Shown: positions 3,067-59,394 of the stretch, piece by piece | Layout of the letters: the number at the start of each line of letters is the position of its first letter | How positions within the stretch are numbered: position 1 is the stretch's first letter | NCBI GenBank assembly: GCA_019745315.1 | Contig: JAIETH010000001.1 | Coordinates: 90,526-154,525 of the forward strand | From: Patescibacteria group bacterium | GTDB taxonomy: Bacteria > Patescibacteriota > Minisyncoccia > Phycocordibacterales > UBA918 | Reading direction: 5' to 3' | DNA: 64,000 bases | Translations under genes and position numbers: made by a program | The notes under the pieces: generated by a model | Databases searched by the model: none | Seen by the model: only the letters and a program-made list of their open reading frames with translations | Told to the model about the DNA's origin: nothing

Positions 3067-4116
3067 TTGTATATGCCGCGTCAGCTTACTGAACAGGTTT
3101 TCTTCTATGGGTTACTTGCGCTTGCAGGCTATGTGATATGGCAAATTTTTGCTCCGTTTGTAGGAGAATTAATTCTGGCAGCAATTATTGCAGTGGTCGC
3201 GTACCCTCTTTTCACACGATTATTACGTTTGATGCCAAAGCAAAGTAGAGGACTTGCCGCATTTGCGACACTAATCCTTATTGCGTGTACGATTTTTGCG
3301 CCGCTCTCGTTTCTTGCATATATTCTTTTTAACCAAGCTCTCGCTTTTTACAATAGTTTTGGGCAAGCAGGAGTGGCGAGCGCCGGAGACTCTCTCAATA
3401 TGCTCGAGGGTCTTATTAGACAATTCTTCCCTGACTTCGCATTTAACTTTGCACAGTATGCAAAATCCGCCTCAGGATGGGTTGCGGTGCATGTCGGAGA
3501 TATTTTTGCAGGAACTGCTTCAACCATCTTCAGTCTTTTTATAACGTTCATTGCACTTTTCTACATGTTTAAGGATGGATCATGGTTTGTCCGCAAACTT
3601 ATTTGCCTGAGCCCCCTTAAAGATACTGAGGACACATTGATTCTGGGTCGTCTCACAACTTCAATACGTTCTGTAGTCTTGGGGACACTTGCCGTAGCAC
3701 TCATACAAGGAATTCTGACATCGATTGGATTCACTATTTTCGGCATTGAGCAGGCAGTTTTGTGGGGAAGCGTTGCTGCGGTTGGAGCATTGATTCCAGG
3801 TATTGGAACAGGAATCGTGTTTGTTGTTGTTATTGCGATTACCTTCCTCTCTGGTTCGTATGGAGCTGCTATCGGACTTGCGCTGTGGGGAATATTTGCC
3901 GTTGGTCTCATTGATAACTTCTTGGGGCCATATCTTATGGGTCGAGGAGCTGAGCTCCACCCATTCTTAATCCTTATTGCTGTTCTCGGAGGAGTCTCCC
4001 TCTTCGGCCCTATCGGAATCCTTATTGGTCCTGTTGCGCTTACATTCTTCACAGTGCTTCTTGAGTTGTATAGTCTTCATACACAAAAGAAAGACGAAGA
4101 ACGATATGCTGGATAG
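3067..4116 (+). CDS. AI-2E family transporter (PerM/UPF0118)
   Basis: Polytopic membrane protein about 350 aa long with the typical AI-2E N-terminal 'LLALAGYVIWQIFAPFVGELILAAIIAVVAYPLF' and C-terminal helices. Confidence 0.8.
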   Translation: MYMPRQLTEQVFFYGLLALAGYVIWQIFAPFVGELILAAIIAVVAYPLFTRLLRLMPKQSRGLAAFATLILIACTIFAPLSFLAYILFNQALAFYNSFGQAGVASAGDSLNMLEGLIRQFFPDFAFNFAQYAKSASGWVAVHVGDIFAGTASTIFSLFITFIALFYMFKDGSWFVRKLICLSPLKDTEDTLILGRLTTSIRSVVLGTLAVALIQGILTSIGFTIFGIEQAVLWGSVAAVGALIPGIGTGIVFVVVIAITFLSGSYGAAIGLALWGIFAVGLIDNFLGPYLMGRGAELHPFLILIAVLGGVSLFGPIGILIGPVALTFFTVLLELYSLHTQKKDEERYAG

Positions 4117-4513
4117 ACACTTCTTAGATTCATTTCTCAAACTCAATCATACGTCTCCGACGATGAGTGATGAGGAAGTGTCGGCGGTTCTGAGTAAAGC
4201 GGGGTGGTCAAAATCTGAAATTGATAGTGCTCTTATTCTTCTTCAGAAGGGAGCGGTTCCTACTAGTTCACAAGGTAACGTACCATTTCGCCCTGATATG
4301 GAATTTTCTCCGTCGCAACTCTCGAGTCTTCTTGGTGTTGATGTGAAGCTTGATCCAAGTATTATGCGCGGAGCGAGTGCTTCGATTGATGGGCGAGAGG
4401 TTGTAGTCCGGACATTTTTTGGTTTTGGTATCGTATTGGTGTCGCTTTCCATTGCAGCTCTCATAGGTTTGGGGTCTATGCATTTCCTCGAGATCGGTCC
4501 ATTCGCACGATAG
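4103..4513 (+). CDS. Hypothetical protein with C-terminal TM helix
   Basis: Internal ATG of the 3977 ORF, chosen to avoid overlap with the transporter. C-terminal 'FFGFGIVLVSLSIAALIGLG'. Confidence 0.4.
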   Translation, partial: DMLDRHFLDSFLKLNHTSPTMSDEEVSAVLSKAGWSKSEIDSALILLQKGAVPTSSQGNVPFRPDMEFSPSQLSSLLGVDVKLDPSIMRGASASIDGREVVVRTFFGFGIVLVSLSIAALIGLGSMHFLEIGPFAR

Positions 4514-17257: not shown

Positions 17258-17330
17258 GGGCCCGTAGCTCATCTGGTAGAGCGCCTCACTTGCACTGAGG
17301 AGGCGGCAGGTTCGAGTCCTGTCGGGTCCA
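17258..17330 (+). tRNA. tRNA-Ala (anticodon TGC)
   Basis: Cloverleaf with acceptor GGGCCCG/CGGGTCC and a G3:U70 Ala identity pair. D-arm GCTCATCTGGTAGAGC. Anticodon loop CTTGCAC. T-arm GCAGG-TTCGAGT-CCTGT. Discriminator A. CCA not encoded. Confidence 0.9.
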
Positions 17331-17343
17331 CTGATATACAAAA

Positions 17344-17407: not shown

Positions 17408-19057
17408 CTATTTATTTTTAAAATAGCGACAACCTGTACTGAACATGTAATGTTCGAGTCCTGTCGGGTCCACATCGTCAGAGTTTTGTTCGCAAAACTC
17501 TTCAAATATCCTTGCAGTACTTAGTGAATCAGAGGTTCGAAAGGCCTCTGATTTGCTGTATGTCAGACGGCTATCAAAAAGGAAGAAAAAGAGCCTCTGT
17601 TGTTCTATTGGACTCACAGAATCCCAGATCGTTATTGGGCTTTTGAGCATCTTCGTTGCTTTATCAAAGGCGGTTCGAAATGGAACTTTTAGGTCCCCAT
17701 TTTGTCCTGGCTTCATATCTTTGAGTTCTTTCGCCAATTCTTCGATCCTTTTCTCATATTGTTCTCGCACAAGATCACTTCGAGTCCTCGATGCGCTGTC
17801 AGTCAATTCTCTAATTTCTTGTTCGATCCTTTCGCACTCCCTAGCATTTGCTGTTTGCTTGCTTCGTAAATCATGAACTTCTTCCTTCCACACACGACTG
17901 AAGGTAAGATCGAGGATCTCATCCATCTCTTGCTTGATCGCGTTGCGTTTTACCAAAGCGCGAAAATCTTCCTCAATCTTCTTTCTCTGAATAGCCTTTG
18001 ACCTCAATGAACATCCCTTGTGGATGCAGTAGTAATAGTAATAAGGATTCTTTTTGTGGTTGCTTGATCGAGCCGCAGTCAATTTGCTCTTACACTCTGA
18101 ACAAAGCACTAATCCACGCAAAGGGAATTCCGGAGAAATGTCCTGGCGAACCCATGCTTTAGAAGAATCCTTTTGTAAACGTCGTTGAATCTTTTCAAAT
18201 GTTTCTACAGAAATGATCCCTTTATGCTTTCCAGGTCGTCGGGCTACACCCCATTTTGGATATTCAATATCACCGCAGTAGGCGACATCCCTTAGGATAT
18301 TAGAAACATCCGTGAGATGTCCTTCCGCTGTTCTTCTCTCCCAGAATTTATTTTCAAAAAGGAATCGCGCAACATCAATCTGCCTGACAAATATTCCAGA
18401 AGCAAAACCCTCAAGGGCTTCCTTCAAGATCTTTGCATCCTGGTTAGGCACTAGAACTTTTCCATGCAGTGGGTTTTTCACCATATCGAATCCGCGCTTC
18501 TTTCCAAAAGTGTAATAGCCAAGATCGAGCCTGGCTTTCATTTTCTGAATAACTTGTCGCTGGTTTTGTTTACGCTCTAGTTGAGCCTGGCCGGACATAA
18601 TCAGTTCGGCGAATTCACCCTCCGGACTCTCATCAAAATTATAGTTTAGACAACGGAGCAAAACTTGGCGGTTTCTAAATGCCTGCCTTAGTTTGAAATG
18701 GAATTCAACATTTCTTGAAAAACGCTTCAGATCATCAAATACGACTATAAATTTCTTGTGGGGATTTGCATCAATATATCCAATAAGTTCTCTCATTGCA
18801 GGTCGCTTCATAAAATCACCTCCACCCGTGAAAGTGTCAGGGAATGTCTTGATGTAAGGTACTCCGATCAATCGGAGATCATTTACACAGCGTCCTTCTT
18901 GGCTTGTCAGACCGGAGCCTTCCAATTCCTGTTTCTTTGAAGAAACGCGAGCATAAACAAGACCTTCTCTGCCGAGAAAGGGATTTTTGTTTTCTAAATC
19001 TTGGATTATTTCTTTATGGAGTTTTTTTATACTCATATAATTCTTGCCGTATAACAT
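17408..19057 (-). CDS. Large serine recombinase (resolvase/invertase-type N-domain plus recombinase and zinc-ribbon C-domains)
   Basis: 'GLVYARVSSKKQ' catalytic-Ser motif. 'NPYYYYYCIHKGC' zinc-ribbon-like cysteines. About 549 aa, typical of LSR integrases. Confidence 0.85.
   Translation of the reverse strand: MLYGKNYMSIKKLHKEIIQDLENKNPFLGREGLVYARVSSKKQELEGSGLTSQEGRCVNDLRLIGVPYIKTFPDTFTGGGDFMKRPAMRELIGYIDANPHKKFIVVFDDLKRFSRNVEFHFKLRQAFRNRQVLLRCLNYNFDESPEGEFAELIMSGQAQLERKQNQRQVIQKMKARLDLGYYTFGKKRGFDMVKNPLHGKVLVPNQDAKILKEALEGFASGIFVRQIDVARFLFENKFWERRTAEGHLTDVSNILRDVAYCGDIEYPKWGVARRPGKHKGIISVETFEKIQRRLQKDSSKAWVRQDISPEFPLRGLVLCSECKSKLTAARSSNHKKNPYYYYYCIHKGCSLRSKAIQRKKIEEDFRALVKRNAIKQEMDEILDLTFSRVWKEEVHDLRSKQTANARECERIEQEIRELTDSASRTRSDLVREQYEKRIEELAKELKDMKPGQNGDLKVPFRTAFDKATKMLKSPITIWDSVSPIEQQRLFFFLFDSRLTYSKSEAFRTSDSLSTARIFEEFCEQNSDDVDPTGLEHYMFSTGCRYFKNK
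17452..17473. repeat. 22-nt exact direct copy of the tRNA-Ala 3' end (positions 17310-17331). Putative att/integration scar.
   Basis: 'gttcgagtcctgtcgggtccac' occurs twice. The second copy lies inside the last codons of the serine recombinase gene on the opposite strand. Confidence 0.8.
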
Positions 19058-19271
19058 TCCGGCACAATGACTCTATATATTCTAACCTTTTTAGAATGAC
19101 TTCATCCGGCGTTTTGTAGTCTTTCAAGGACTTCCGGTATTCAGCAATCGAGACTAGAGGTTTCTCTTGAGAAGCCTCGACTATTTCTGGATTTCCCTCG
19201 CCAACCCTATTCATGGCGGTAGGGATCCTCCATTTCAGAGGCTCGAATAGCGAGTGACACCAAGGATCCAA
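19014..19271 (-). CDS. Hypothetical small protein. Overlaps the recombinase start and the upstream ORF in another frame.
   Basis: 85-aa ORF translationally coupled to the recombinase. No family recognised. Confidence 0.35.
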   Translation of the reverse strand: MDPWCHSLFEPLKWRIPTAMNRVGEGNPEIVEASQEKPLVSIAEYRKSLKDYKTPDEVILKRLEYIESLCRNVIRQELYEYKKTP

Positions 19272-19539
19272 TACAGGTCGCTTGCTGGGGGGTCATAGGA
19301 TCCGTCCTGACCCTGTTTATCGTGTCCTCAAGAAGAACTAGCATCTCGGATGGACGCCTCACTGGAAGCCGTTTTAGTGGCTTTCCAGGCCTTCTAGTCT
19401 TAGGGGATGATCCTCCTTTCCGGACCGCAATTCCACGGGCTTCCGCTGTACTTGGATCATGGGTAAAGCAAAACTCCCGACCATGTAGCGCGTAGGCCTT
19501 GCATCGACTGTCTTCTTTTGTCTTGTGGATACAGCGCAT
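19207..19539 (-). CDS. Hypothetical small Cys/His-containing (Zn-finger-like) basic protein, possibly a recombination directionality factor or regulator
   Basis: 'CIHKTKEDSRCKAYALHGREFCFTH' C-x9-C...H-x4-C-x2-H pattern. Basic, Pro/Arg-rich middle. Preceded by a roughly 270-nt structured leader. Confidence 0.35.
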   Translation of the reverse strand: MRCIHKTKEDSRCKAYALHGREFCFTHDPSTAEARGIAVRKGGSSPKTRRPGKPLKRLPVRRPSEMLVLLEDTINRVRTDPMTPQQATCIGSLVSLAIRASEMEDPYRHE

Positions 19540-19843
19540 GAGTTTTGCTTACTCTCGGCGCTACCCACCCACAAAAAATTCGCGAAGATTCGGGTTCGTT
19601 TTTCCTCACTAGAAACGGAAAAGGGACCTGAACCCCCGCGACCGTAGTCGTGGATGAGTTCAGATCCCTTAGGATTCCGAAGCCGAATCAGTCGATTCGC
19701 TTTATCGAGTTTACCTTTGGACCGTGTTTCTCCCGTGGGAAAAGCAAAGCCAAAGACTCAATAGCACTATCAACCTATGCTTATATTCTAACTCGTTGAG
19801 AAAACCTGTCAAAGGTTATTCAACTTGTCAGGCTCCATGAAAA

Positions 19844-20110
19844 CTAAAGGATGCTAATTTTGTCTGCCGCTTCTTCTGTCGATTTTTTGTCGGCAGTAAT
19901 CTTTGACTTCAACTTCACCAACTCCTTTTTGAGCAATTGCTTTGCTCTTTCTTTTTCCTCGGCCGAAGAAAAATGTTTGTTCTCAAACTCTTCGATCTTT
20001 CGGTCCATTTCCTTGAGTTTCTTTTTGTTGGCCACCATAAATATTGGAGCCATAAAACCTGCTAAGAACAGACCGATGAAGATCGCTACTACAAGAATGA
20101 TGATTATCAT
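19844..20110 (-). CDS. Small membrane protein with coiled-coil tail (88 aa)
   Basis: 'MIIIILVVAIFIGLFLAGFMAPIFMVA' TM followed by a K/E-rich helix. Confidence 0.45.
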   Translation of the reverse strand: MIIIILVVAIFIGLFLAGFMAPIFMVANKKKLKEMDRKIEEFENKHFSSAEEKERAKQLLKKELVKLKSKITADKKSTEEAADKISIL

Positions 20111-20356
20111 AAATTTGCTTGATCGACTTCTCTAATAATGCCCGCTAGGTTTTCCGTTTACACACAGAAAACCCGCCACGGGTAGGAGCCGAAGCCCCTC
20201 GTACAGGTTTCCCCATACGGCGATCAAGCAACCCCATGACGGGTTTTCTATGCTTGATCGACTTTTGACCATACCTTTGACCGGAGTCAAAGGGTTAGGC
20301 CCAACATATTCAGTTGTAAATACATTATACGATATTTTTGATTCCACTTACAGACT
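20111..20356. repeat. Structured non-coding region. Contains the 14-nt direct repeat 'tgcttgatcgactt' (20116-20129 and 20251-20264), an inverted 10-nt copy (20221-20230), and additional perfect hairpins (e.g. 20274-20293).
   Basis: Repeats and palindromes read directly from the sequence. No convincing ORF. Confidence 0.5.
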
Positions 20357-20404
20357 ATGCGAACAAGTCTAGAAATGGTGGTGTTTTTGTACTATAATGA
20401 ACTC

Positions 20405-21400
20405 ATGGCAAAGGCTACTAAAAAGAAAGCCGCACTAAGCCCTATTGAGGCCCTTGAAGCCTCAAGAAATAGCAGGGTGATTGTTTATTTTACAGGGGAC
20501 AGAAAACCTCAACCGTTTTCAACATTGGTTGGTATTGATGTACTCCCTGCATTCAAGGCTGTTCTCAAAAAAATTGGTAATACAAAAAAGATCACACTTG
20601 CCCTCTACACTAATGGGGGACATTTGGATACTCCTTGGCCTCTAATACATTTGATCAGGGAACACGCTGAAGAATTCGAGGTGCTTATTCTTGAGAAAGC
20701 ATTGAGCGCTGGAACTATGATTGCCCTAGGAGGCGATAAGATTGTCATGACGCCTCATTCTTTTTTGAGTCCTATTGATCCTGCAACCAATTTCCAAGAC
20801 GAGGAAAATCAGAAAATGAAGCGTTTTGAAATTGAGGATGTGATTGGGTATATAGATTTTGTTAGAGACAGAATCGGGATCACTGAACAACAGGCTTTGA
20901 TGGAAATCATGAAAGATTTGACTAAGGAAGTAAATCCTACTCGTCTTGGGTCTATTCATCGTACCCATGCTTTGGTTAGACGATTAGCAACAAAACTACT
21001 ATCGCTCCACAAAGAACCAGTGTCCGAAAGACAGACAAAGGAGATTATTGATCATTTGGCTCAAAAACTTTTTTCTCATAGTCATTTGATAAACAGGAAG
21101 GAAGCAAAAGAGATTGGTTTCGATAACATCATTGAATATGCCGATAAAGCAACTGAAAAGGCGGCTGATAATTTGATGACATACTATTCAGACTATCTCA
21201 AAATCGATGAGGAGTTTGAGCCTCTAAAGGAGATTGGCGAAAAAGAAGTAAAGAAAGAAATTCCACTAAGTCTAGCCGTAGTTCACTCCAAAGATCTCAA
21301 GTATGACTTCAAGGCAAATTGCGTAATTACAAAAGCCCCAGATCCAAACGGAAATCCTGGGATCAGAGTCGATATGAAATCTAAGTGGGAAAAAATATGA
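20405..21400 (+). CDS. ClpP/SppA/SDH-superfamily serine peptidase (crotonase-fold protease)
   Basis: 'LSAGTMIALGGDKIVMTPHSFLSPIDP' matches the ClpP-like G-x-S-x-G ... P motif pattern. About 330 aa with a non-protease C-terminal extension. Confidence 0.6.
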   Translation: MAKATKKKAALSPIEALEASRNSRVIVYFTGDRKPQPFSTLVGIDVLPAFKAVLKKIGNTKKITLALYTNGGHLDTPWPLIHLIREHAEEFEVLILEKALSAGTMIALGGDKIVMTPHSFLSPIDPATNFQDEENQKMKRFEIEDVIGYIDFVRDRIGITEQQALMEIMKDLTKEVNPTRLGSIHRTHALVRRLATKLLSLHKEPVSERQTKEIIDHLAQKLFSHSHLINRKEAKEIGFDNIIEYADKATEKAADNLMTYYSDYLKIDEEFEPLKEIGEKEVKKEIPLSLAVVHSKDLKYDFKANCVITKAPDPNGNPGIRVDMKSKWEKI

Positions 21401-21639
21401 AATACAACTCTCAAACAATATCAATAGGCAGTGATAGACAGAATTTCAAGACAAGCCTTGAAATAGCGGGTAATTTGAATGTTGGAGGAATTGTATATTC
21501 TACGCGACAAAATGGGTGGTTCATACAAACACAAGGTCCTGAAATAAAAAAGAACGAGCCATCAGGAGAATATGTAGAACTAAGTAAGGAAGAAGAAAAG
21601 AAGTTCTACAAGAAAGCCTTGGAGAAGAAACTTCTGTAA
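21397..21639 (+). CDS. Hypothetical small protein
   Basis: ORF overlapping the protease stop by 4 nt (operonic). K/E-rich C-terminus. Confidence 0.35.
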   Translation: MKYNSQTISIGSDRQNFKTSLEIAGNLNVGGIVYSTRQNGWFIQTQGPEIKKNEPSGEYVELSKEEEKKFYKKALEKKLL

Positions 21640-21642
21640 ATT

Positions 21643-22146
21643 ATGTATGCGGAACAAGGCCTACTCGATCCAACAACGCTTTACCAGGGAGATCTCATAG
21701 AAGATTTTCCTTTTCATGACCTTGATTCCCATTCTTCTGTAGTTAGAAACGAGAGTGGTACCCTAGTTGAACAAGCCACAGAGGATCAAAACTATCTTGC
21801 TCTCATTGAAACAAAGAAAAGGACAGTGATGATACTATCTCAAACTTGCGATATACAAAGGCGTACCCATGTCATTGTTTGTCCTATTTTCGATCTTCAA
21901 GAATACAGTAGAACTATCTCAAGGGATAAAGTTGAGGCTCTAAAAAAGAGAACAATAAACTATCTTTTTTATCTTCCCGCACATGGTAATTTTCAGGAAT
22001 CGTTTGCTGATTTACAACAGATTCACTATGTACCTCTAGAAACCATGAACTCCTACAAAGACAAGAGGGTTTTATCTTTGAGTGATTTGGGGAGACATCA
22101 TCTTTCTTGGTCCTTAGCATCTTTGTTTGGTCGGCCAGCATCGTAA
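21643..22146 (+). CDS. Hypothetical protein (167 aa)
   Basis: Begins 4 nt after the previous ORF. No recognisable motifs. Confidence 0.45.
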   Translation: MYAEQGLLDPTTLYQGDLIEDFPFHDLDSHSSVVRNESGTLVEQATEDQNYLALIETKKRTVMILSQTCDIQRRTHVIVCPIFDLQEYSRTISRDKVEALKKRTINYLFYLPAHGNFQESFADLQQIHYVPLETMNSYKDKRVLSLSDLGRHHLSWSLASLFGRPAS

Positions 22147-22522
22147 GTCTAGTTCTATATCCCTATTGTGGTAGTTGGATTGAAAGATCTCTAAGAAAAT
22201 TCAAGCGCTCTTTGAAGCGTAGGGCTTGATTGGTAGTACTCCCAAAAGCGAGATAGGTAGGTTTTCAGGTGGTTCGAAGTTTTATATACTGTGTCCACAA
22301 AATACGAAATAATCTCCCAAACGGGAGATTTTTCGATTTTGTGGAAAGCGCAGCCATATCGCTTTTGCGATGGCGAGCTGGGGTCGAGAGCACTTAGGCT
22401 TTTGTGAATACTTGGAACAAAAGACTTAGTGACTCGTGACCACTGGTGGAAGCCAAGGTGCGCTCGCGGAAATTTTGCCTAAAGCAAAATTATCTGTAAC
22501 CACAAAAAAGAGCGTTTTGTAT

Positions 22523-22867
22523 TCACGCTCTTCGTCTTCCGGCTTCTTCTCGTTCGAGTATCTCCTCATATTCTGCAGTGACGGTCTCCACATCATCTGG
22601 TTGTATAACCAGTGCTGCAATTAGGTCTCGTGCACGCATCTGGAGAAAGAAAATGGTGGGCAGTGATTTGCCGATCGCATACCTGACCACTGCCTCATGA
22701 ATTTTTCCAGCTACCACATACGCACTCATGTAGTATCCTGCGATAGAAAAGAACTCAGGAAAAAGGTCTTCCGGCAATCTATCCAGATCGGCACTCCCGA
22801 GAGAGATGCATTCAAGCTTATCTTTCATCTCACGGAAAGGGTGCAGTCGAATCAATCGTGATGCCAT
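22523..22867 (-). CDS. Hypothetical protein, GC-rich cassette
   Basis: Start set at the internal Met 'MASRLIRLHPF...', chosen on composition alone (the stretch upstream of it in the ORF is AT-rich); no RBS was checked. GC-rich third positions. Hairpin+T terminator downstream on the - strand. Confidence 0.4.
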   Translation of the reverse strand: MASRLIRLHPFREMKDKLECISLGSADLDRLPEDLFPEFFSIAGYYMSAYVVAGKIHEAVVRYAIGKSLPTIFFLQMRARDLIAALVIQPDDVETVTAEYEEILEREEAGRRRA

Positions 22868-23029
22868 GACTTTTCTCCCATCTGAGAGGATGAAAAGAAC
22901 TATATACAGAAAACATATACAAGGGAGCCTTGTCAACGAACACTATGAGTATATTGATTATCTTAAAATAATATGGTATAAGTTTTTTATATTGTATAGT
23001 GCAATACGTACATTTAAGGAGAATTTGGA

Positions 23030-23464
23030 ATGGCTCAAGGAGAAAAAATACTCCTTCTGGACGGAGAGAAGTCGAGGCGTGAAGGAATTGCTAAGCTTCT
23101 CACGGAATGGGGTCATAGGGTTGCTGCGGAGCGGTGTCCTGATACGGCGTGGCGATTGATTGAGCAGTACCCGAACTCCTTCACTGTTGTCATCGCTCCC
23201 GCCAACACGTCGCGTGGTAGCGGCACTGACTTCCTGGCTCGTGTTTCGTCTGGGATGAATACGCCGCCCCACCTGATCGCTCTGTGTGTCGCCCTCCATC
23301 ACTATCGGCGATATCTGCCGGATGTGATTGCGGACTTTGGGGGACACTGCGTTTCTGCGACCTGGCTTTGTGATGACGGAACGAACTACCCGCATCTCCG
23401 GGGTGTGATCGAAAACCTGAAGATACGACCCATTCTCTCGGTGACCGATACCAAAGACCACTAG
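23030..23464 (+). CDS. Receiver (REC)-like domain protein, degenerate (pseudo-receiver?)
   Basis: 'KILLLDGEKSRREGIAKLL...' has CheY-like N-terminal topology, but the acidic pocket and phospho-Asp are not conserved. GC-rich. Confidence 0.45.
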   Translation: MAQGEKILLLDGEKSRREGIAKLLTEWGHRVAAERCPDTAWRLIEQYPNSFTVVIAPANTSRGSGTDFLARVSSGMNTPPHLIALCVALHHYRRYLPDVIADFGGHCVSATWLCDDGTNYPHLRGVIENLKIRPILSVTDTKDH

Positions 23465-23488
23465 GTCTTCTGTATCGGTCTTTTTTAT
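23443..23488 (+). terminator. Hairpin (gaccgatac...gtatcggtc) plus T6 terminator of cassette 1. The 'TTTTTTATTTCC' motif is shared by the following cassettes.
   Basis: Seen directly. Analogous hairpin+T-run elements follow each of the seven cassettes. Confidence 0.6.
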
Positions 23489-23507
23489 TTCCAATTTCAG
23501 AAGGCAC

Positions 23508-23536
23508 TGTACAAAAACATATTACATGGTATAATT
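23508..23536 (+). promoter_or_regulatory. Sigma-70-type promoter for cassette 2: -35 'tgtaca', 17-nt spacer, extended -10 'TGGTATAAT'
   Basis: Read from the sequence. The same 'tatggtataa' element recurs upstream of cassettes 1, 4 and 5 and other genes. Confidence 0.45.
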
Positions 23537-23583
23537 CCTGCCGGATTTGCACCCGCAAGTCTCTCAGTATTCGGAGAGCCATA

Positions 23584-23967
23584 ATGGCACAAGCAAGGAT
23601 TCTCTTGGTTGAAGATGAACGGTTTTTGCGGAGCATGTACACTATGCTCCTCGAAGGGGCAGGTTATGAGGTTTTCTCTGCCGTAAACGGCGAGGAGGCA
23701 GAGGAAAAGCTGGAGCTCGGATCTTTCGATTTGATCTTGAGCGACAACAATATGCCGTTCAAGGATGGCGTGGATGTGCTTCGGGCTCTTCGCGCGGCAG
23801 GGAATGCCATCCCATTCATCCTTATGAGCGGGCGTCCTTGGCTTGATGACGGTACTGGCCTCGAGGATTTGTGCGCGTCCCACGGGGCGCAGTTCATCCA
23901 GAAGCCTGCTCAGAACAAGGTCCTTCTCGCCGCCATCGAGGAGATGCTCGCAGCCAAATCGGCATAG
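23584..23967 (+). CDS. Single-domain response-regulator receiver (CheY-like)
   Basis: 'RILLVEDE', phospho-acceptor context 'FDLILSDNNMP', and conserved 'T/S' and 'KP' ('FIQKP') positions. Confidence 0.85.
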   Translation: MAQARILLVEDERFLRSMYTMLLEGAGYEVFSAVNGEEAEEKLELGSFDLILSDNNMPFKDGVDVLRALRAAGNAIPFILMSGRPWLDDGTGLEDLCASHGAQFIQKPAQNKVLLAAIEEMLAAKSA

Positions 23968-24124
23968 GTTTCAAGATTGAGGAGTACCCGGGTGGACATG
24001 TGTCCATCCGGTTTTTTATTTCCATTCTCAAATACTTGCAATAGCTCAAATTATATGTTCCAATGCGTTTAGAGTCACACACAAAATCGTGTGAGTGGCA
24101 AAACCAAAACTGGAGGCTCATACA

Positions 24125-24508
24125 ATGAAGCGAATCTTGATTGTTGAAAGTGACGAAGCTCTTGCGGCAGAGCTGACAGAGATGCTGAAGGAGCATCTCG
24201 TGGTGACGGTGCCGAGCACTGTCACTGCATGGGTGTTGATCGAGGAAGGGCCGCCGTTTGATCTTGTGATCACGGATGTCGACAAGATCTCCGAGATGAG
24301 CGGGGTCCAGCTTCTCACGAACATGAAGGCGCAGTCTGTACCGAGCGCATGCGTGCTCATGAGCAGCGGCACCCACCACGACGGACAGTTCCTGCCTGAT
24401 ATTGCCCACAGGCTCGGCATCGAATTCATGCTCAAGTCGAGTATCCGCATTCGGTTTGTTCTTCCTCTCGTGGAGCGCCTTCTTGGTGTCACACGCGCCG
24501 CGGCATAA
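24125..24508 (+). CDS. Single-domain receiver (REC)-like protein
   Basis: 'RILIVESDE', 'FDLVITDVD'. Start taken at the internal Met. Confidence 0.6.
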   Translation: MKRILIVESDEALAAELTEMLKEHLVVTVPSTVTAWVLIEEGPPFDLVITDVDKISEMSGVQLLTNMKAQSVPSACVLMSSGTHHDGQFLPDIAHRLGIEFMLKSSIRIRFVLPLVERLLGVTRAAA

Positions 24509-24566
24509 GCCGCACCAATCCCTCTCCGCTTGCGAGTGGGATTTTTTCATACCCGGATACAAAATA

Positions 24567-24596
24567 TTGCAATTATTGTATTTCTATGGTATAAAA
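24567..24596 (+). promoter_or_regulatory. Promoter for cassette 4: -35 'ttgcaa', 18-nt spacer, 'TGGTATAAA'
   Basis: Read from the sequence. Confidence 0.4.
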
Positions 24597-24644
24597 CAGG
24601 TGGAAATTTCGCAGCTGTGCGGAATTCAGTGAGGGGGAAGTAGC

Positions 24645-25034
24645 GTGGCAAAAACCATTTTGGTCGTTGATGATGATGACGGCGTCCGCGAAGAGCTCGC
24701 GGAACTGATCGAGCTTCCGGGGCGGATCATCGTGATCGCCAAAAATCCGGAAGAGGCCCTCCGGCTCATCGATGGGGGTCTCAAGCCCCACTTGATCATC
24801 TCCGATCTCAACATGCCGCCGTATATGGACGGCTTCACCATGTTCATGGTGATTCGCCGCCTCAAGCGGTTTCCGTTTAACTTCATTCTGATGAGTGCGA
24901 GAGATAATCTGGACGGGGTGTCGCTCGCGGAGCTTTCGCGCAGGTACTCGTTCGAGTTCATCAGCAAGGGCTCTCTCCGAGGATCAGAGATCCTTCCGAT
25001 GGTCGCGCGCCTCCTCGAGAGTCTCGAGGTCTGA
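24645..25034 (+). CDS. Single-domain response-regulator receiver (CheY-like)
   Basis: 'ILVVDDDD', 'HLIISDLNMP', 'FISKG'. Confidence 0.85.
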   Translation: MAKTILVVDDDDGVREELAELIELPGRIIVIAKNPEEALRLIDGGLKPHLIISDLNMPPYMDGFTMFMVIRRLKRFPFNFILMSARDNLDGVSLAELSRRYSFEFISKGSLRGSEILPMVARLLESLEV

Positions 25035-25100
25035 GGGCCTCTCGCGCAGGTGTTTAAAAACACACCTGCGCTTTTTTATTTTCATACAAAACCATAGAGC

Positions 25101-25131
25101 TTGATAGTGCCATATTTTTATGGTATAAAAT
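25101..25131 (+). promoter_or_regulatory. Promoter for cassette 5: -35 'ttgata', 17-nt spacer, 'TGGTATAAAAT'
   Basis: Read from the sequence. Confidence 0.45.
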
Positions 25132-25179
25132 ACTTCAGAAATTTCGCCCCACGGCGACATCCGCAGGAGGTCAACCAAA

Positions 25180-25635
25180 ATGGCTCGTGTGCTCTGCGTA
25201 GATCCAGAAAACGAAGAATTGATAGTGCAGGTGATCCGAGGGATCGCTGATCACGGTCACACCGTGCATATGGTCCCGAGCCTTTTTCAAGTGCCCATCA
25301 CCGTGAGTCAATTCTACTTCGATCTCATGGTCGTGGTTGATGACCCTCTCGATTTCGATTTCGAGCGGCTCAAGGTTTTTCACGCAGCTCGATGCCGCGT
25401 GATTCCTCCTGACAATCTTCCACTGCCGCATCTTCTCGTCGTGTGTCCGGTGAGCATTCCTCCTCCTCGAGTGTGGAAGCTCAACTCACTCCGCATGCAA
25501 GTGCGGGAACCAACAAGTTACGTGGTGCTGGGGAAGAGCGATCAAAAACCCTGTCCGCTCTACGAGCACTTGAAGCCGCTCTTTCCGTCTGTTCTCCCAG
25601 AGCACACGCTCTGGACAGAACCTGTCCAAGCCTGA
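25180..25635 (+). CDS. Receiver-like domain protein, degenerate
   Basis: 'RVLCVDPENEE', 'FDLMVVVDD'. Pro-rich C-terminus. GC-rich. Confidence 0.4.
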   Translation: MARVLCVDPENEELIVQVIRGIADHGHTVHMVPSLFQVPITVSQFYFDLMVVVDDPLDFDFERLKVFHAARCRVIPPDNLPLPHLLVVCPVSIPPPRVWKLNSLRMQVREPTSYVVLGKSDQKPCPLYEHLKPLFPSVLPEHTLWTEPVQA

Positions 25636-25743
25636 CTCTCATCCGCATCTGCGGATTTTTTCTTTATTGCACATACAAATTATTTATGCGATCTTTTTAG
25701 AGGATAGTGCACATCCCGTGCTCACAATCAAAACGAGGGTGTT

Positions 25744-26211
25744 ATGGAAAAAAAGTTCGCACCGAAAGTGTTGATCGTCCATACCAGCGTTTGTGCTCGC
25801 ATATGCATTCGCGTGCCGCTTATGAGAAAGCATCGCGTGCGCGGTGTCAGCTGCGGAGAAACGGCTCTTTCTGTTTTTCGGATGGGTTTTTTTGATCCGG
25901 ATCTGGTCATCATAAACTACGCTCTCTCGAAAGATATGTCGGGCATGAAGCTTCTCGGCGCTCTTCGTGAGAAGACCTCCATGCGCGCAGTTCCTTTTTT
26001 TTCAGGTCCGGTGGTGGTGCTGGGAGCGTCCGAGACCGCAGAGCGTACGAGGAAATTGGAGACGCTCTGCGCACGGCGAGATGCGGTCTATATGTCCAGT
26101 TTCAGCTGCTGGCCGGAAGATCTGGCGAGGCTCGCACGAATCGTTAATGGTCAGCTTGATCCGTATGGATCAGAAGAAGAGGGCGAACGCTCATTATCGA
26201 CGAAAGTCTGA
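25744..26211 (+). CDS. Receiver-like domain protein, degenerate (Asp to Asn at the acceptor position)
   Basis: 'KVLIVHTS', 'DLVIINYAL', 'VVVLGAS'. Confidence 0.4.
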   Translation: MEKKFAPKVLIVHTSVCARICIRVPLMRKHRVRGVSCGETALSVFRMGFFDPDLVIINYALSKDMSGMKLLGALREKTSMRAVPFFSGPVVVLGASETAERTRKLETLCARRDAVYMSSFSCWPEDLARLARIVNGQLDPYGSEEEGERSLSTKV

Positions 26212-26336
26212 AGAGTACCCGAGACATGTTCTCGGTTTTTTTATTTCCCACCATACTCTTGATCCGTATCTTTTTTCATGTCACTATCTTTGCTCGGGGC
26301 GCGCAGTGCGTCCCTTGTTCTTTCCGGGGAAGATTC

Positions 26337-26768
26337 ATGCAACATGTATTGTGTGTGGGAGATGGTCAACATATCGACGCGATGCTGAGGAGCGGCGTCG
26401 AACGCATCGAAGGCCAGACCATCAAGGTGACATCAGTGCAGACGACAGAGGATGCGCTCCTCCATCTGCGTGCCGCCAACGACGAGCCGTGCCTTGTCGT
26501 GATCGCTCTGCCATTTCGCACATGCATGAATTTCATGCGCAGCCTGCGGCAGCCTGATGGAAACAAGCAGCAGCTCTTCGAAGGGCCCTTCGTTTTCGTC
26601 GGGCAGTCGAATGGCTTCATTCGCTCGAGGATGCTGTACAAGTTCGTCGCACTGCTTCACGGCATCTGCTACGACACGGAGTGGACGAAGGTCACTCCCG
26701 TACTCTTCGAGCGGCTCGTCAGGACGCTGCTTGATCCCTACGGCATGCTGTATCAGGAAGCAGCATAG
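26337..26768 (+). CDS. Receiver-like domain protein, degenerate
   Basis: Internal Met 'MQHVLCVGDGQ', 'CLVVIALP', 'FVFVGQS'. Followed by a 'cacacgccccgcgtgtgg'+T6 terminator. Confidence 0.4.
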   Translation: MQHVLCVGDGQHIDAMLRSGVERIEGQTIKVTSVQTTEDALLHLRAANDEPCLVVIALPFRTCMNFMRSLRQPDGNKQQLFEGPFVFVGQSNGFIRSRMLYKFVALLHGICYDTEWTKVTPVLFERLVRTLLDPYGMLYQEAA

Positions 26769-27208
26769 CCTCCCAACAACCCCACACGCCCCGCGTGTGG
26801 TTTTTTATGCTATGTGTTGCGGTTTCAGCATTTTGCTTATAATAAAATTATACAGGATGCAGGGAATAGGAAATCGCCGAACTCTCCTTAGAGTCCGGCG
26901 ATGGCGACAGGAGTGTGTACTCCTAGTCCGCAAGTTGCTTCACTGCGATGAGGTCGAGTGTCTCTCTCAGCATTTGGCCGCTCATGTCCGAAACCTCTCG
27001 GACATAGTCTGCCTGTGCGTTCGTATGAGAGTACTGCTCCCATGCGAACATACCCAGCATTGCAGCAAGAAAGAACATCGCGTATTCGTACTTCACTGTG
27101 ATTCCCCCTCAGGAATGTGTTTTAATATTATACTATTATATTAAATAAAGTCAATAGTCTGTGTAAACGCGTAAATGGCGCGCTTTTGTATTGTATAATC
27201 ATAGCAAT

Positions 27209-30907: not shown

Positions 30908-31996
30908 CTACTTACCTTGACCGTAGTATTCTTTGAGAGAAGTGACATGTTCTTCGTAGGTGATTGAGCAGTGGAAACCACCATCTCTGTCATGGAAGTA
31001 GAACATACAGTCTGTTTTTCGAGGATTCAATGCTGCGAGTATTGCGTCGAGAGAAGGATTTGCAATTGGCGCTGGAGGAAGTCCTTTGTTTTCATACGTA
31101 TTGAACATTGAGTTGATGTATTTGTCATCAGGTACTACGTTCGGCCACCATTTTGTTTGATGTTCAGTACCTTTTGCATACTGGAGCGTTGCGTCAATCT
31201 GAAGTTTCATACCGGCAAAAAGACGATTCCAGATAATTCCTGAGATATAGCGCATATCTTCAAAGTCGTATGCTTCGCGTTCAAGAATAGATGCGATGGT
31301 GAGTGCGTCAGCAAGAGAAACTTTCTCTGCGATATCTTCTCCATATCGAGCCAGAACTTCTTTTTTAAAGTGCTCATTCACAATCACCGCGACTTCTTTC
31401 GGAGATGCGCTTTTGCCGGTGATGTATGTGGATGGAGTGAATTTCCCTTCGCTCAGAGAGGGTTCAGCAGAAATAATCTCTTCTATAAAGAGCGCTCGCT
31501 CTTCTTCGGTCCAGTCTAAAATTTCTCCAAAGTTGTATGCGACTTCTTCTTTGCGTTCTCCTGATTGGATAACAAGAATGCGTCCTGTGGGAGAGGCAAT
31601 ATTTTGATAGAGCGGTATGTGGGTGAGGGTTGCGAGAACTCGACTAAACCAGCTTTCCTTTGAGCGTGTTGCAAGTGGTTCTTCTGTTATTGCTTCAACA
31701 AAAAATTCATCAACGTCAGGATTTTCGGTAATTAATTGTGCGCTCGGATCTACGCCGATAGGAAAAGGCTTATTGGCTGCAGACCCCCAGAGAGATTCGC
31801 CTGGGCCTTCCACCACTCGTCCTATTACTACATAGGTGCCGATAAGTACAAGTGCGATGCCTGCAGCCGCAACGCCTCCTCCATAGAGAGCGAATGTTTT
31901 AAGAGGGGAGAGAGAAGAAGACTTTTTCTCGTGCGGCGCTGTATAGAATTTCAACGGAAAATGTTCGCGAGTGCGTTTTTTGGGATTCAACTTCAT
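30908..31996 (-). CDS. mltG: Endolytic murein transglycosylase MltG (YceG-like)
   Basis: N-terminal TM, and a C-terminal 'FNTYENKGLPPAPIANPS...' YceG signature. Confidence 0.85.
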   Translation of the reverse strand: MKLNPKKRTREHFPLKFYTAPHEKKSSSLSPLKTFALYGGGVAAAGIALVLIGTYVVIGRVVEGPGESLWGSAANKPFPIGVDPSAQLITENPDVDEFFVEAITEEPLATRSKESWFSRVLATLTHIPLYQNIASPTGRILVIQSGERKEEVAYNFGEILDWTEEERALFIEEIISAEPSLSEGKFTPSTYITGKSASPKEVAVIVNEHFKKEVLARYGEDIAEKVSLADALTIASILEREAYDFEDMRYISGIIWNRLFAGMKLQIDATLQYAKGTEHQTKWWPNVVPDDKYINSMFNTYENKGLPPAPIANPSLDAILAALNPRKTDCMFYFHDRDGGFHCSITYEEHVTSLKEYYGQGK

Positions 31997-41960: not shown

Positions 41961-42073
41961 AGAAGAAATACATCCTAAAAACAGACGTTTGTGCTATTTG
42001 CGCAAACGTCTGTTTTGGTATATTACGGTACCAATGTCCAATGCCGGGCAGAGATCTTTGAGGAGATCCTCAG

Positions 42074-42739
42074 ATGACAAGGCCGAAACCCAATATCTTC
42101 GTGATGGAGAACGATGGGGCCATTCGGGTCGGGGTTCGTCCCGATGGCCCGCATGGCTTTTCTCACCGAACACGGGATCTGAAAGACAGTGTGCCTGTCT
42201 TCCTTTCCAAGAATACTCCTCCTCGCTTCAAGGGAAGGGTGCTGGTTGAAGGCATTCTCTCGAAGAGCGAGAAAGGAGTCTTTCACATATCGCAGAGGCG
42301 CTCCTGGCGCGGCGCGCTGCTTCATGTGAGGGTGAGCCCCGATTTCCTCTTTCCGTCACATGTAGGCACGCACCTGTCTGTGGAAAATGCCTATCCGGGC
42401 ATCGAACACAGTGGTGGGTTCTTCTTCCAGATGGGGAGACGTGCCTCTACGTCTCAAGTGCAGTGGGCTGCGCTTGAAGAAGGAATGTCTATCCATGTTG
42501 CCGACACTGGCGGTATTCATGTTCGATACCTCAGGGTCACATGGACGGGCGACTGGCTTCAGGTTCTGCCAGCAACAAAGGAGGGGGTCGCGCAGACGCT
42601 GGTTGATCGCCTTCTTCGGCAAAGAAATCCCACCCATGTCGCCCTGACATGGACTTATGCAACGCTCCGAAGGCTCGAATGTCGGGCGCTCTGGCCAGCG
42701 ACGCTCGAGAGACGGTTGCGGGAACTGTCGCACAGGTAA
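42074..42739 (+). CDS. Hypothetical protein, GC-rich cassette
   Basis: GC-rich third positions. 'TTGGTATATTACGG' promoter-like element upstream. Hairpin + T6 'ATTACC' terminator downstream. Confidence 0.45.
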   Translation: MTRPKPNIFVMENDGAIRVGVRPDGPHGFSHRTRDLKDSVPVFLSKNTPPRFKGRVLVEGILSKSEKGVFHISQRRSWRGALLHVRVSPDFLFPSHVGTHLSVENAYPGIEHSGGFFFQMGRRASTSQVQWAALEEGMSIHVADTGGIHVRYLRVTWTGDWLQVLPATKEGVAQTLVDRLLRQRNPTHVALTWTYATLRRLECRALWPATLERRLRELSHR

Positions 42740-42804
42740 TGCACTCACGGGTGCATTTTTTATTACCTTTACTCGTAATCTTTTTTACAGCATAATGTAC
42801 GGAT

Positions 42805-48741: not shown

Positions 48742-49731
48742 GTGAACGAATCCATGCCTCCCTTGATTGCAGAGCGAAAATCACTGCCTACGAAAGTAGT
48801 TTTCTTTACTGTTTCTTTTCTATTGTTACTTTTTATTTTTGTGGTGGTGCGTATTAATTCAGCACCAGATGATTTTCCGATTGGCGAACGTGTAGTGATT
48901 GAAGAGGGAGCAAGCCTTAATGATATAAGTCATACGCTTGCACGTAAGAATATTGTACGCTCAGCGTTTCTCTTTAGAGGTATTGTTATTTTCTATGGCA
49001 AAGAAGAATCACTTCGTGCCGGGCCTCATGTGTTTGTCGAGCCACTCACAGCGTTTGGAGTTGCTCGCTCTTTTATACAACAATCTTCGCTTATAGCTCC
49101 TGCTCGAGTCACTATTCCTGAAGGTTCTCGTTTATCTGAGTTTGATGCGCTTCTTCATGCTGCAGTCCCTGAGATTCCGGAAGGTGCGCTTATAGAAGCG
49201 GTCGGCGGAGAAGAAGGAGTATTATTTCCGGATACGTACTTTATCCCAGAGACATATATCGTTCTTGATGTTGCGTCTCTCCTTACAGAGACATTTGCTG
49301 AAAAACTTGCGCCATATAGAGATGCCATTCTCGCATCTGGTTTCACTGAACGAGAAGTTATAATACTCGCTTCTATTCTTGAAAAAGAAGGAAGTGATGC
49401 AGAGTCTATGCGTCTCATATCAGGCATTCTTCAGAAAAGGCTCTCTATAGGAATGGCGTTACAAGTAGATGCGACATTTACCTATCTTCTTGGCAAAACA
49501 AGCGCAGAGCTGACTTTGAATGATTTAGAAATAGATTCTCCGTTTAATACCTACAACAATAGAGGATTGCCCCCATCTCCTATAGGAAGTCCAGGTATTA
49601 AAGCTATTGAGGCCGTATTGAATCCGACGGAGTCTCCATATCTCTACTATCTCACTGATGAGGACGGTGTGTTCTATTATGCAGAGACATTTGAAGAGCA
49701 TAAGAAAAATAAAGAACGTTACTTGCGGTAG
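48742..49731 (+). CDS. mltG: Endolytic murein transglycosylase MltG paralog (YceG-like)
   Basis: 'FNTYNNRGLPPSPIGSPG' YceG signature. N-terminal TM. Confidence 0.8.
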   Translation: MNESMPPLIAERKSLPTKVVFFTVSFLLLLFIFVVVRINSAPDDFPIGERVVIEEGASLNDISHTLARKNIVRSAFLFRGIVIFYGKEESLRAGPHVFVEPLTAFGVARSFIQQSSLIAPARVTIPEGSRLSEFDALLHAAVPEIPEGALIEAVGGEEGVLFPDTYFIPETYIVLDVASLLTETFAEKLAPYRDAILASGFTEREVIILASILEKEGSDAESMRLISGILQKRLSIGMALQVDATFTYLLGKTSAELTLNDLEIDSPFNTYNNRGLPPSPIGSPGIKAIEAVLNPTESPYLYYLTDEDGVFYYAETFEEHKKNKERYLR

Positions 49732-59310: not shown

Positions 59311-59394
59311 TGCGCGAACTTGAAGAATTAGAGAGCCTTCTTGGTATTTCATTTCAAGATCTTGAATGCCGCTCTTACGCATATCTCATATAAC
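59311..59394 (+). pseudogene. rnc: Out-of-frame 5' segment of rnc ('MRELEELESLLGISFQDLE...')
   Basis: Encodes the conserved RNase III N-terminal 'LExLLGYxFxD' block in a frame that stops after 27 codons. The main rnc ORF continues in the +1 frame. Confidence 0.5.

Follow-up and report, generated by a model that had tools for sequence, protein, structure and literature searches.

Single-domain response regulators and aspartate-less pseudo-receivers are established classes of receiver (REC) proteins (PMC4395418, PMC12632262). As defined in PMC12632262, aspartate-less receivers (ALRs) lack the phosphorylation-site Asp, while pseudo-receivers (PsRs) lack any of the five active-site residues. The stand-alone regulators CheY, Spo0F and DivK act through protein-protein contacts. 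Most characterised bacterial pseudo-receivers, in turn, are domains within larger regulators. Here, an array of seven consecutive genes, R1 to R7, is described from a 64,000-nucleotide stretch of contig JAIETH010000001.1 of a Patescibacteria group bacterium (this whole stretch is referred to as the window). On balance, the array is probably an accessory island that encodes single-domain response regulators together with pseudo-receivers and exchanges their alleles by recombination; it was found in a narrow lineage only. An earlier sequence-only reading of the same DNA held that such an array is not a described system type. This goes beyond the evidence, as both protein classes are established (PMC12632262, PMC4395418); what is unusual is the stand-alone arrangement of seven genes in a reduced genome, the replacement of alleles with the precision of the open reading frame (ORF) within a conserved scaffold, and the stable GC-rich composition.

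The seven ORFs follow one another on the + strand, as first noticed, and together span 23030-26768:

R1, 23030-23464, + strand, 144 amino acids (aa): aspartate-less pseudo-receiver with DG, A and C at the DD, D and T positions.
R2, 23584-23967, + strand, 127 aa: canonical receiver with ED, D, S, F and K-P.
R3, 24125-24508, + strand, 127 aa: receiver with D, S, F and K, and with E-S at the acidic pair.
R4, 24645-25034, + strand, 129 aa: canonical receiver with DD, D, S, F and K, and a GTG start.
R5, 25180-25635, + strand, 151 aa: lineage-specific protein, of which the N-terminal ~90 aa are weakly REC-like.
R6, 25744-26211, + strand, 155 aa: aspartate-less pseudo-receiver with HT, N and G, and a C-terminal LDPYG motif.
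R7, 26337-26768, + strand, 143 aa: aspartate-less pseudo-receiver with GD, A and G; carries the LDPYG motif and is a paralogue of R6.

The NCBI annotation calls the same seven genes (MBX9906392-398), and R4 (MBX9906395.1) is annotated as "response regulator [Patescibacteria group bacterium]". For R5, NCBI places the start at Met31 (121 aa, MBX9906396.1), thereby omitting the upstream 25180-25269. The 151-aa form is more likely, because the first 30 codons are kept in the alleles of two relatives (L003 and L157, introduced below) and are preceded by a good GGAGG ribosome-binding site. The array products (127-155 aa) show no second domain in Pfam or NCBIfam, as expected of single-domain response regulators. 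Pairwise protein identity among the cassettes is 19-36%, in keeping with the earlier view that the array is no recent amplification.

Receiver identity was assessed at three levels. In a search with the Pfam profile PF00072 (Response_reg; gathering score 30.2 bits), three proteins exceeded the gathering score, namely R2 with 67.5 bits (1.4e-18), R4 with 48.2 bits (1.4e-12) and R3 with 31.6 bits (2e-7), while R6 (18.3 bits, 0.0027) and R1 (13.6 bits, 0.077) fell below it and neither R5 nor R7 gave a match. Profile-profile comparison by hhalign, with 44 unrelated receivers aligned as a generic REC reference, returned 99.7% for R4, 99.6% for R2, 97% for R3, 95% for R1 and 93% for R6, compared with 58% for R7 and 0.9% for R5. 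The paralogy of R7 and R6 is seen in BLASTP (1e-6), in hhalign (72-84%) and in the common motifs F-[ES]-GP and LDPYG. The AlphaFold model of R7 (predicted local distance difference test score, pLDDT, 71.7; predicted template modelling score, pTM, 0.67) displays five strands alternating with five helices and a short C-terminal helix, and its matches, with template modelling (TM) scores of 0.6-0.67, include RcpA and Rcp1, both phytochrome response regulators, as well as many other receivers. According to this model, R7 has the (beta-alpha)5 receiver fold. REC identity is thus supported for six of the seven proteins: R2 to R4 by Pfam, R1 and R6 by profile comparison, and R7 by the structure model. 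The original claim that all seven ORFs are receivers holds for these six but not for R5, which has no significant REC match. The AlphaFold model of R5 is unusable (pLDDT 35), a profile search of the PDB sequences gave no match, and an exhaustive HMMER search of 1.84 billion representatives returned one relative at 55% identity and nothing else. The only REC hint is that residues 1-89 match a profile built from the array's own RECs (56%, E 1e-4). R5 is possibly a pseudo-receiver as well.

The five active-site residues, i.e., the acidic pair, the phospho-acceptor Asp, the Thr/Ser and the Lys, were assigned by alignment. R2 (E-D, D, S, K-P) and R4 (D-D, D, S, K) hold the full set in all alleles seen and carry an aromatic switch residue three positions ahead of the Lys, which bears out the proposal of two canonical receivers. 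In R3, the D, S, F and K are present, while the second acid of the pair is replaced (E-S) and one metal-binding acid is therefore missing. Because of this missing second acidic residue, R3 is a PsR under the definition of PMC12632262. The Asp position is occupied by A in R1, N in R6 and A in R7, in both alleles of each. The prediction that at least four members have lost the Asp or the acidic pocket is accordingly borne out by R1, R6 and R7, which lack the Asp, and by R3 with its E-S pair. R5 could not be placed in the active-site alignment. The active-site states of R1-R4, R6 and R7 are identical across the alleles found, including an R2 allele of 51% identity. Judged by these residues, R2 and R4 are predicted to be phosphorylatable single-domain response regulators and R3 is probably one too, while R1, R6 and R7 are aspartate-less receivers.

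Set beside CheY, Spo0F and DivK, R2 and R4 are alike in being receivers of 127-129 aa with nothing else attached and with the full DD/D/S/K set and aromatic switch, and R3 comes close to this pattern. Unlike these regulators, the array comprises seven paralogues in one place with no known partner, and its alleles differ by up to 49% in protein sequence between strains that share 97-99.5% identity in their housekeeping proteins. Furthermore, no che, flagellar, pilus, sporulation or kinase genes occur among the tested ORFs of the 64-kb window. R1, R6 and R7 resemble ALRs and PsRs in having a receiver fold or profile without the phospho-acceptor Asp and other active-site residues. They differ from typical pseudo-receivers in that they are stand-alone proteins encoded side by side with canonical receivers, and no other occurrence of the R6/R7 subfamily, marked by its LDPYG tail, was found.

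The kinase search covered 52 ORFs, i.e., nearly all ORFs of the window with at least 150 aa, which were scanned against Pfam (59341-59967, 3977-4513 and overlapping alternative-frame ORFs fell outside this set), and gave no match to HisKA, HATPase or Hpt. Likewise, no che, flagellar, pilus or DNA-binding output genes were seen among the tested ORFs, which sets the array apart from a chemotaxis CheY system and agrees with the earlier remark that neither a kinase nor an output domain is encoded nearby. The phosphorylatable members may obtain their phosphoryl groups from unlinked kinases or from small phosphodonors, and they would act through protein-protein contacts in the manner of CheY, Spo0F and DivK. 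Within the same network, the pseudo-receivers could be binding partners or competitors that do not depend on phosphorylation.

Comparison between strains relied on relatives found on a handful of short metagenomic contigs only (L001-L005, L157-L160 and a contig of ERZ22067504), together with L162, a more distant syntenic Minisyncoccota genome. Along the 5.3-kb left flank, L002 is 95.8% identical in nucleotides (synonymous divergence, dS, ~0.10-0.12), and the flank proteins UvrC, Ddl and UDP-glucose dehydrogenase are 99.5%, 99.1% and 97.2% identical. The L002 array as a whole is 85.3% identical in nucleotides, with protein identities of 89.6% for R1 (dS 0.28), 92.1% for R3 (dS 0.34) and 51.2% for R2 (dS 1.27). 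On the right side, the CAP-domain protein next to the array is 93% identical in L157 (dS 0.37, nonsynonymous to synonymous ratio, dN/dS, 0.04). The L157 alleles of the array genes have protein identities of 53% for R5 (dS saturated, dN/dS not computable), 51% for R6 (dS saturated, dN/dS 0.20) and 70% for R7 (dS 1.31, dN/dS 0.16), and a 57-aa ORF following R7 has 69% (dS 0.86, dN/dS 0.26). The L157 spacers are 60-83% identical, which is at or above the neutral expectation (CAP synonymous sites are ~71% identical), and the R5 promoter and the 55 nucleotides (nt) upstream of R6 are almost unchanged.

The identity profile is a mosaic in which blocks of 98-100% adjoin blocks of 55-70%. In R1, codons 49-72 hold 20 differences from L002, 15 of them at third positions, while codons 1-48 hold 3, and this sequence pattern marks codons 49-72 as a putative recombinant block. 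Around R2, the cassette's promoter, first leader hairpin and terminator are ~95% identical to L002, and the divergence starts just 5' of the ribosome-binding site and ends ~15 nt past the stop codon, before the terminator hairpin. The conserved stretches or breakpoints thus lie in the promoter, leader and terminator spacers. The index of dispersion of differences does not discriminate recombination, since the flank is over-dispersed as well owing to an indel-rich spacer. For the + frame, comparison with L002 and L003 gives dN/dS values of 0.12-0.36 and comparison with L157 values of 0.16-0.26, and the substitution spectrum is ordinary (transition/transversion ~2, no A bias). Mosaic hyperdivergence combined with low dN/dS is the signature of homologous recombination that swaps old divergent alleles, each protein being under purifying selection. 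In L002 (7583-7970) and L158 (4005-4562), the R4 orthologue carries a frameshift near codon 35-45, and a longer R4 product of 185 aa called on the ERZ22067504 contig points to the same frameshift; a single cassette therefore appears dispensable. Where the contigs overlap, the relatives show the same gene order and number, as the suggested cassette count was to establish: negA-R1-R2-R3-R4-R5..., R3-R4-R5-R6... and R5-R6-R7-small ORF-CAP, with L002 and L158 covering the left, L003-5 the middle and L157 the right of the array. Hypervariable mosaic coding parts in a conserved scaffold, and a variable interval beside tRNA-Ala, are findings beyond those of the sequence-only reading.

In the explanation favoured here, divergent alleles are exchanged through homologous recombination, each ORF is under purifying selection and single cassettes can be lost. 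The same divergence might instead point to a polymorphic interaction module under an arms race, whose products would be targets, decoys, immunity-like binders or effectors against a phage, a competitor or the host cell of a probable episymbiont, with old alleles kept by negative frequency-dependent selection and swapped as cassettes. Deep divergence confined to the ORFs, with regulatory spacers and flanks conserved, would fit such a module, as would the independent transcription units, the disruption of one cassette (R4) in a strain, the variable interval beside a tRNA integration site and a composition unlike that of the host. Still, we regard it as unlikely. There is no PADLOC match to known defence-system proteins, the block holds no toxin, nuclease or secretion gene, no signal peptides are visible (the N-termini begin directly with strand beta-1) and there are no viral relatives. 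Moreover, dN/dS lies well below 1 without a sign of positive selection, the conserved phosphorylation residues of R2-R4 point to genuine phospho-signalling, and accessory islands can be hyperdivergent without an arms race. A related proposal, which we hold to be rather doubtful, takes the locus for a polymorphic one in which a scaffold of promoter, leader hairpin and terminator houses very old and strongly differing receiver and pseudo-receiver alleles that are swapped almost ORF by ORF between strains, under frequency-dependent selection as targets or decoys in an antagonism with a phage, a competitor or host signalling. If this were true, the kept GC-richness would be a by-product of frequent recombination (through GC-biased conversion) or of a shared moving gene pool.

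Some described systems of defence or diversification were also considered. A known anti-phage system is unsupported, as the PADLOC matches are marginal (best E 5e-4, 17.7 bits) and lie mostly over the receiver N-terminus of R2 and R4. A diversity-generating retroelement target was rejected on account of the lack of a reverse transcriptase domain in the window ORFs, of long internal repeats and of an A bias.

Base composition sets the array apart from its surroundings. GC content at third codon positions (GC3) is 0.56-0.75 in R1-R7 against 0.380 (standard deviation 0.056) in 43 other ORFs of the window, confirming that the coding parts are GC-rich at these positions, while GC content at first and second positions differs little from that of the other ORFs. 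At four-fold degenerate third positions, the frequencies of A, C, G and T are.14,.30,.34 and.22 in the array, compared with.29,.16,.20 and.36 in the background and.32,.15,.23 and.30 in the ATP synthase genes. Translational codon selection is an unlikely cause of the high GC3, as the ATP synthase genes show no such bias and G and C are raised equally. The spacers, described earlier as AT-rich, have a GC content of 0.40-0.49 (0.25 in the first), close to that of ordinary short intergenic DNA (0.395; whole window 0.448). They are therefore not unusually AT-rich but ordinary for this DNA.

A second GC-rich orphan gene lies at 42074-42739 in a unit spanning 41975-42770. It encodes 221 aa, has a GC3 of 0.60, lacks a Pfam, NCBIfam or PHROG match, and its four-fold third bases (A.135, C.294, G.349, T.222) are the same as in the receiver array. 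The unit has an upstream hairpin, an extended -10 TGGTATATT of a TGGTATAT-type promoter, and a hairpin with the terminator TTTTTTATTACC. Since it shares both composition and layout, the cassette style is not unique to receivers, which suggests a wider class of GC-rich stand-alone units in the genome.

This composition could be read as a sign of recently imported foreign DNA without particular function, i.e., a block from a donor of ~55% GC that decays neutrally in an AT-richer genome. A GC3 of 0.56-0.75 against 0.38, a four-fold composition that equals that of the orphan gene at 42074-42739 and is unlike the background and the ATP synthase genes, the R4 frameshift and the orphan status of the R5, R6 and R7 families are all in line with an import. 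However, GC3 is similar in allele pairs across strains (0.586/0.579 in R5, 0.558/0.553 in R6, 0.648/0.685 in R2 and 0.615/0.736 in R7), and the differences between AT and GC in close alleles are symmetric (51:52). Similar GC3 between saturated alleles together with this symmetry argues against simple amelioration of a foreign block, and high GC3 is thus a stable property of the locus rather than the fading trace of an import. The statement that codon usage has not ameliorated is hereby upheld, and more strongly than it was made. In addition, purifying selection acts on every cassette tested, each cassette has kept its residues between alleles even at 51% identity, the gene order is kept in every relative seen, and promoters and terminators are conserved, which leaves a neutrally decaying import improbable. 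Three candidate causes of the kept GC3 are not separated by these data: circulation of the alleles in a GC-richer pool of genes, a recombination hot spot subject to GC-biased conversion, and selection on composition.

GC-rich DNA also yields long ORFs in alternative frames, for example a 222-aa ORF at 23894-24562 on the - strand, and one related contig (L159) looks chimeric in its first 1.2 kb. The array might on these grounds be an artefact, either because the real genes lie on the other strand or in other frames or because a GC-rich block was mis-assembled from another organism. Both versions are largely refuted, and we consider an artefact scarcely credible. The Pfam matches lie in the + frame, which dN/dS supports as well, and the alternative-frame products are less conserved (72.6% for that of R3, compared with 92% for R3 itself), several of them gaining stop codons in relatives; the advised check of the opposite strand and other frames thus revealed no real genes there. 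As for mis-assembly, assemblies made independently from different samples connect the array to the same native flanks. Positions 1-1206 of L159 consist of unrelated DNA with a 410-aa ORF (52% GC) that has a MotA/ExbB-like N-terminus and is fused to the middle of R5. This segment, which was discarded, is most likely an assembly chimera, although a real junction is possible.

The regulatory scaffold consists of the following sites, all on the + strand (in the promoters, the distance is that between the two boxes):

22954-22982, + strand: R1 promoter-like site with TTGATT, 17 nt and TGGTATAAG (extended -10).
23443-23492, + strand: R1 terminator, a GACCGATAC...GTATCGGTC hairpin followed by TTTTTTATTTCC.
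23508-23535, + strand: R2 promoter-like site with TGTACA, 16 nt and TGGTATAAT.
23988-24023, + strand: R2 terminator, a 10-bp hairpin followed by TTTTTTATTTCC.
24525-24550, + strand: R3 terminator, a hairpin with ATTTTTTCAT.
24567-24612, + strand: R4 promoter and leader with TTGCAA, 17 nt and TGGTATAAA; the leader holds GAAATTTCGC and a small hairpin.
25044-25083, + strand: R4 terminator, a 10-bp hairpin followed by TTTTTTATTTTC.
25101-25147, + strand: R5 promoter and leader with TTGATA, 17 nt and TGGTATAAA; the leader holds GAAATTTCGC.
25641-25666, + strand: R5 terminator, a hairpin with a T-run.
26219-26248, + strand: R6 terminator, a hairpin followed by TTTTTTATTTCC.
26782-26810, + strand: R7 terminator, an 8-bp hairpin followed by TTTTTTATGC.

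The sequence-only reading had bracketed every gene by the same promoter and terminator. For terminators this stands, as a GC hairpin with a T-run is found downstream of all seven genes, and the array region holds 23 terminator-like sites against 5.1 expected, compared with 18 against 17.1 expected in a 19.6-kb control stretch. The common terminator motif proposed at the same time, TTTTTTATTTCC, occurs exactly after R1, R2 and R6 and with one mismatch after R4, but not after the remaining genes. Promoters are likewise limited to a part of the array. R1, R2, R4 and R5 are preceded by the extended -10 TGGTATAA and, 17 nt further upstream (16 nt in the case of R2), by a TTGnnn/TGTACA box, and these promoters account for four of the five TGGTATAA occurrences in the 64 kb; upstream of R3, R6 and R7, no convincing promoter was found. 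In the favoured explanation, each receiver-fold gene has its own terminator and at least four have a promoter of their own. The promoters and leaders of R4 and R5 are homologous, with TATTTYTATGGTATAAAA, then GAAATTTCGC 9-10 nt on and a small hairpin, despite the lack of detectable similarity between the R4 and R5 proteins. A search of the spacers for RNA families returned nothing significant. The palindrome-containing GAAATTTCG(C) lies at 24603-24611 and 25138-25146, 9-10 nt past the -10 box, and is kept in L157, while the stem of the R4/R5 leader hairpin is conserved and its loop changes (CGCAGCTGTGCG vs CGCAAAAATGCG). The GAAATTTCG motif or leader hairpin could be an operator or an mRNA-stability element.

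Upstream of the array, the window encodes UvrA, UvrB, UvrC, a UDP-glucose dehydrogenase fragment, Ddl, a pterin dehydratase-like ORF (labelled after the orthologous L002 gene) and tRNA-Ala (17258-17331). The CAP-domain protein, for which homologues in Paceibacterota, Minisyncoccota and Taylorbacteria show ~50% identity, lies downstream, as do a rhodanese-type UPF0176 protein, YceG and the ATP synthase operon. Two YceG-like (MltG-type) genes are present in the 64 kb, at 30908-31996 (- strand) and 48742-49731 (+ strand), one of them in a conserved LeuRS-sigma-YceG-MnmA block. The following features lie between tRNA-Ala and the CAP-domain gene, outside the array itself:

17408-19057, - strand: large serine recombinase (PHROG integrase, 1.7e-55), in an insertion after tRNA-Ala.
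20184-20301, - strand: full-length LOOT RNA (Rfam RF03000, 78.6 bits vs a gathering score of 46.4), immediately upstream of the protease gene and divergently oriented.
20357-21400: SDH/ClpP-like protease, in the same insertion, together with several small ORFs.
22523-22867, - strand: negA (114 aa, MBX9906391), without a family match and divergent from R1.
26923-27096, - strand: 57-aa ORF with a hydrophobic N-terminal segment and a GC3 of 0.66, at the right end of the GC-rich block.

The range of 22523-27100 first assigned to the array does hold the seven genes, but it also includes the last two of these ORFs, which are on the - strand and are no receivers. The negA gene has a native-like GC3 (0.43, for the long ORF), is 93% identical in L002 and is the left boundary of the lineage-specific block, while the 57-aa ORF evolves fast (69% identity in L157) and has its own promoter-like site (27154-27127) and terminator (26902-26873). 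The insertion between tRNA-Ala and the array measures 4.9 kb (~17475-22415) and is missing from L002 and L158. The last 22 nt of tRNA-Ala (GTTCGAGTCCTGTCGGGTCCAC) are exactly repeated at 17452-17473, just before the insertion, in an att-like manner. This insertion is probably a small integrative element or prophage remnant, and the mobile-element setting of the orphan LOOT RNA motif may be informative.

In L162, the order UvrC-Ddl ... CAP-YchF-LeuRS-sigma-YceG-MnmA is preserved, with an ABC transporter and other genes in place of the array. As the L162 interval holds other genes, the array is a lineage-specific filling of a variable interval. Atypical GC3, adjacency to tRNA-Ala, absence in L162 and the lack of close homologues outside the lineage are all features of a genomic island, although the array block carries no integrase of its own, the serine recombinase belonging to the separate insertion. 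In this Patescibacteria genome of the Paceibacteria type, the island lies in a variable interval bounded by tRNA-Ala/Ddl on one side and by the conserved CAP-domain gene on the other.

With R4 as the query, neither the 185,579 species-representative genomes scanned nor the JGI metagenomes gave anything above 38% identity over most of the protein, and the R5 and R6/R7 families were confined to this lineage in the searches. Neither R4 nor R6/R7 has relatives in IMG/VR, and a phage origin was rejected on this basis. Among ~150 comparator loci with R4-like receivers, none outside the lineage has at least four adjacent small REC-only genes; there, the receivers cluster with large kinases. Literature searches turned up no receiver arrays in Patescibacteria.

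In comparison, strain-variable islands at tRNA genes, among them arrays of small accessory or orphan immunity genes, share with this locus the adjacency to a tRNA (here tRNA-Ala), a composition unlike that of the host, absence in a distant syntenic relative, small independent ORFs and mosaic recombination. Unlike them, the array holds one fold family instead of unrelated cargo, in an order and number that are constant in the relatives seen, with neither an integrase of its own nor toxin remnants. An integron cassette array is similar in its tandem short ORFs on the same strand and its hairpin-forming spacers, but the hairpins here are short GC stems with T-runs, i.e., terminators and not attC sites, and cassettes carry promoters. 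An integron was rejected, as only the serine recombinase and no IntI-type tyrosine integrase was found among the ORFs scanned, and four cassettes have their own strong promoter.

Several observations weigh against an accessory island of exchanged receivers, and they keep its probability only somewhat above even. R5 is not demonstrably a REC protein, and with no kinase, Hpt protein or target seen in the tested window ORFs, phosphotransfer is purely inferred. No obvious promoter precedes R3, R6 or R7, and these genes may thus be co-transcribed or reached by read-through. The L157 comparison covers 3 kb only, and the CAP flank rather than the array is possibly the part that was recently exchanged. 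Furthermore, such deep allelic divergence is not expected of ordinary cytoplasmic signalling proteins, and a signalling network alone explains neither the hypervariability nor the kept GC3.

Patescibacteria have very small genomes and few signalling genes. That ~4 kb are spent on seven separately terminated receiver-fold genes, with no kinase in the tested window ORFs, suggests that the array is important to the organism. It is atypical for cytoplasmic signalling that the coding parts are at 50-70% protein identity while promoters, terminators and neighbours are at 80-98%. If selection for diversity is behind this pattern, the array would put the receiver fold to a new use and might offer a way into the host or phage interactions of these uncultured bacteria. 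If it reflects recombination in an accessory island only, the locus would still be a clean natural case of high GC3 kept by a recombining block within an AT-richer genome.

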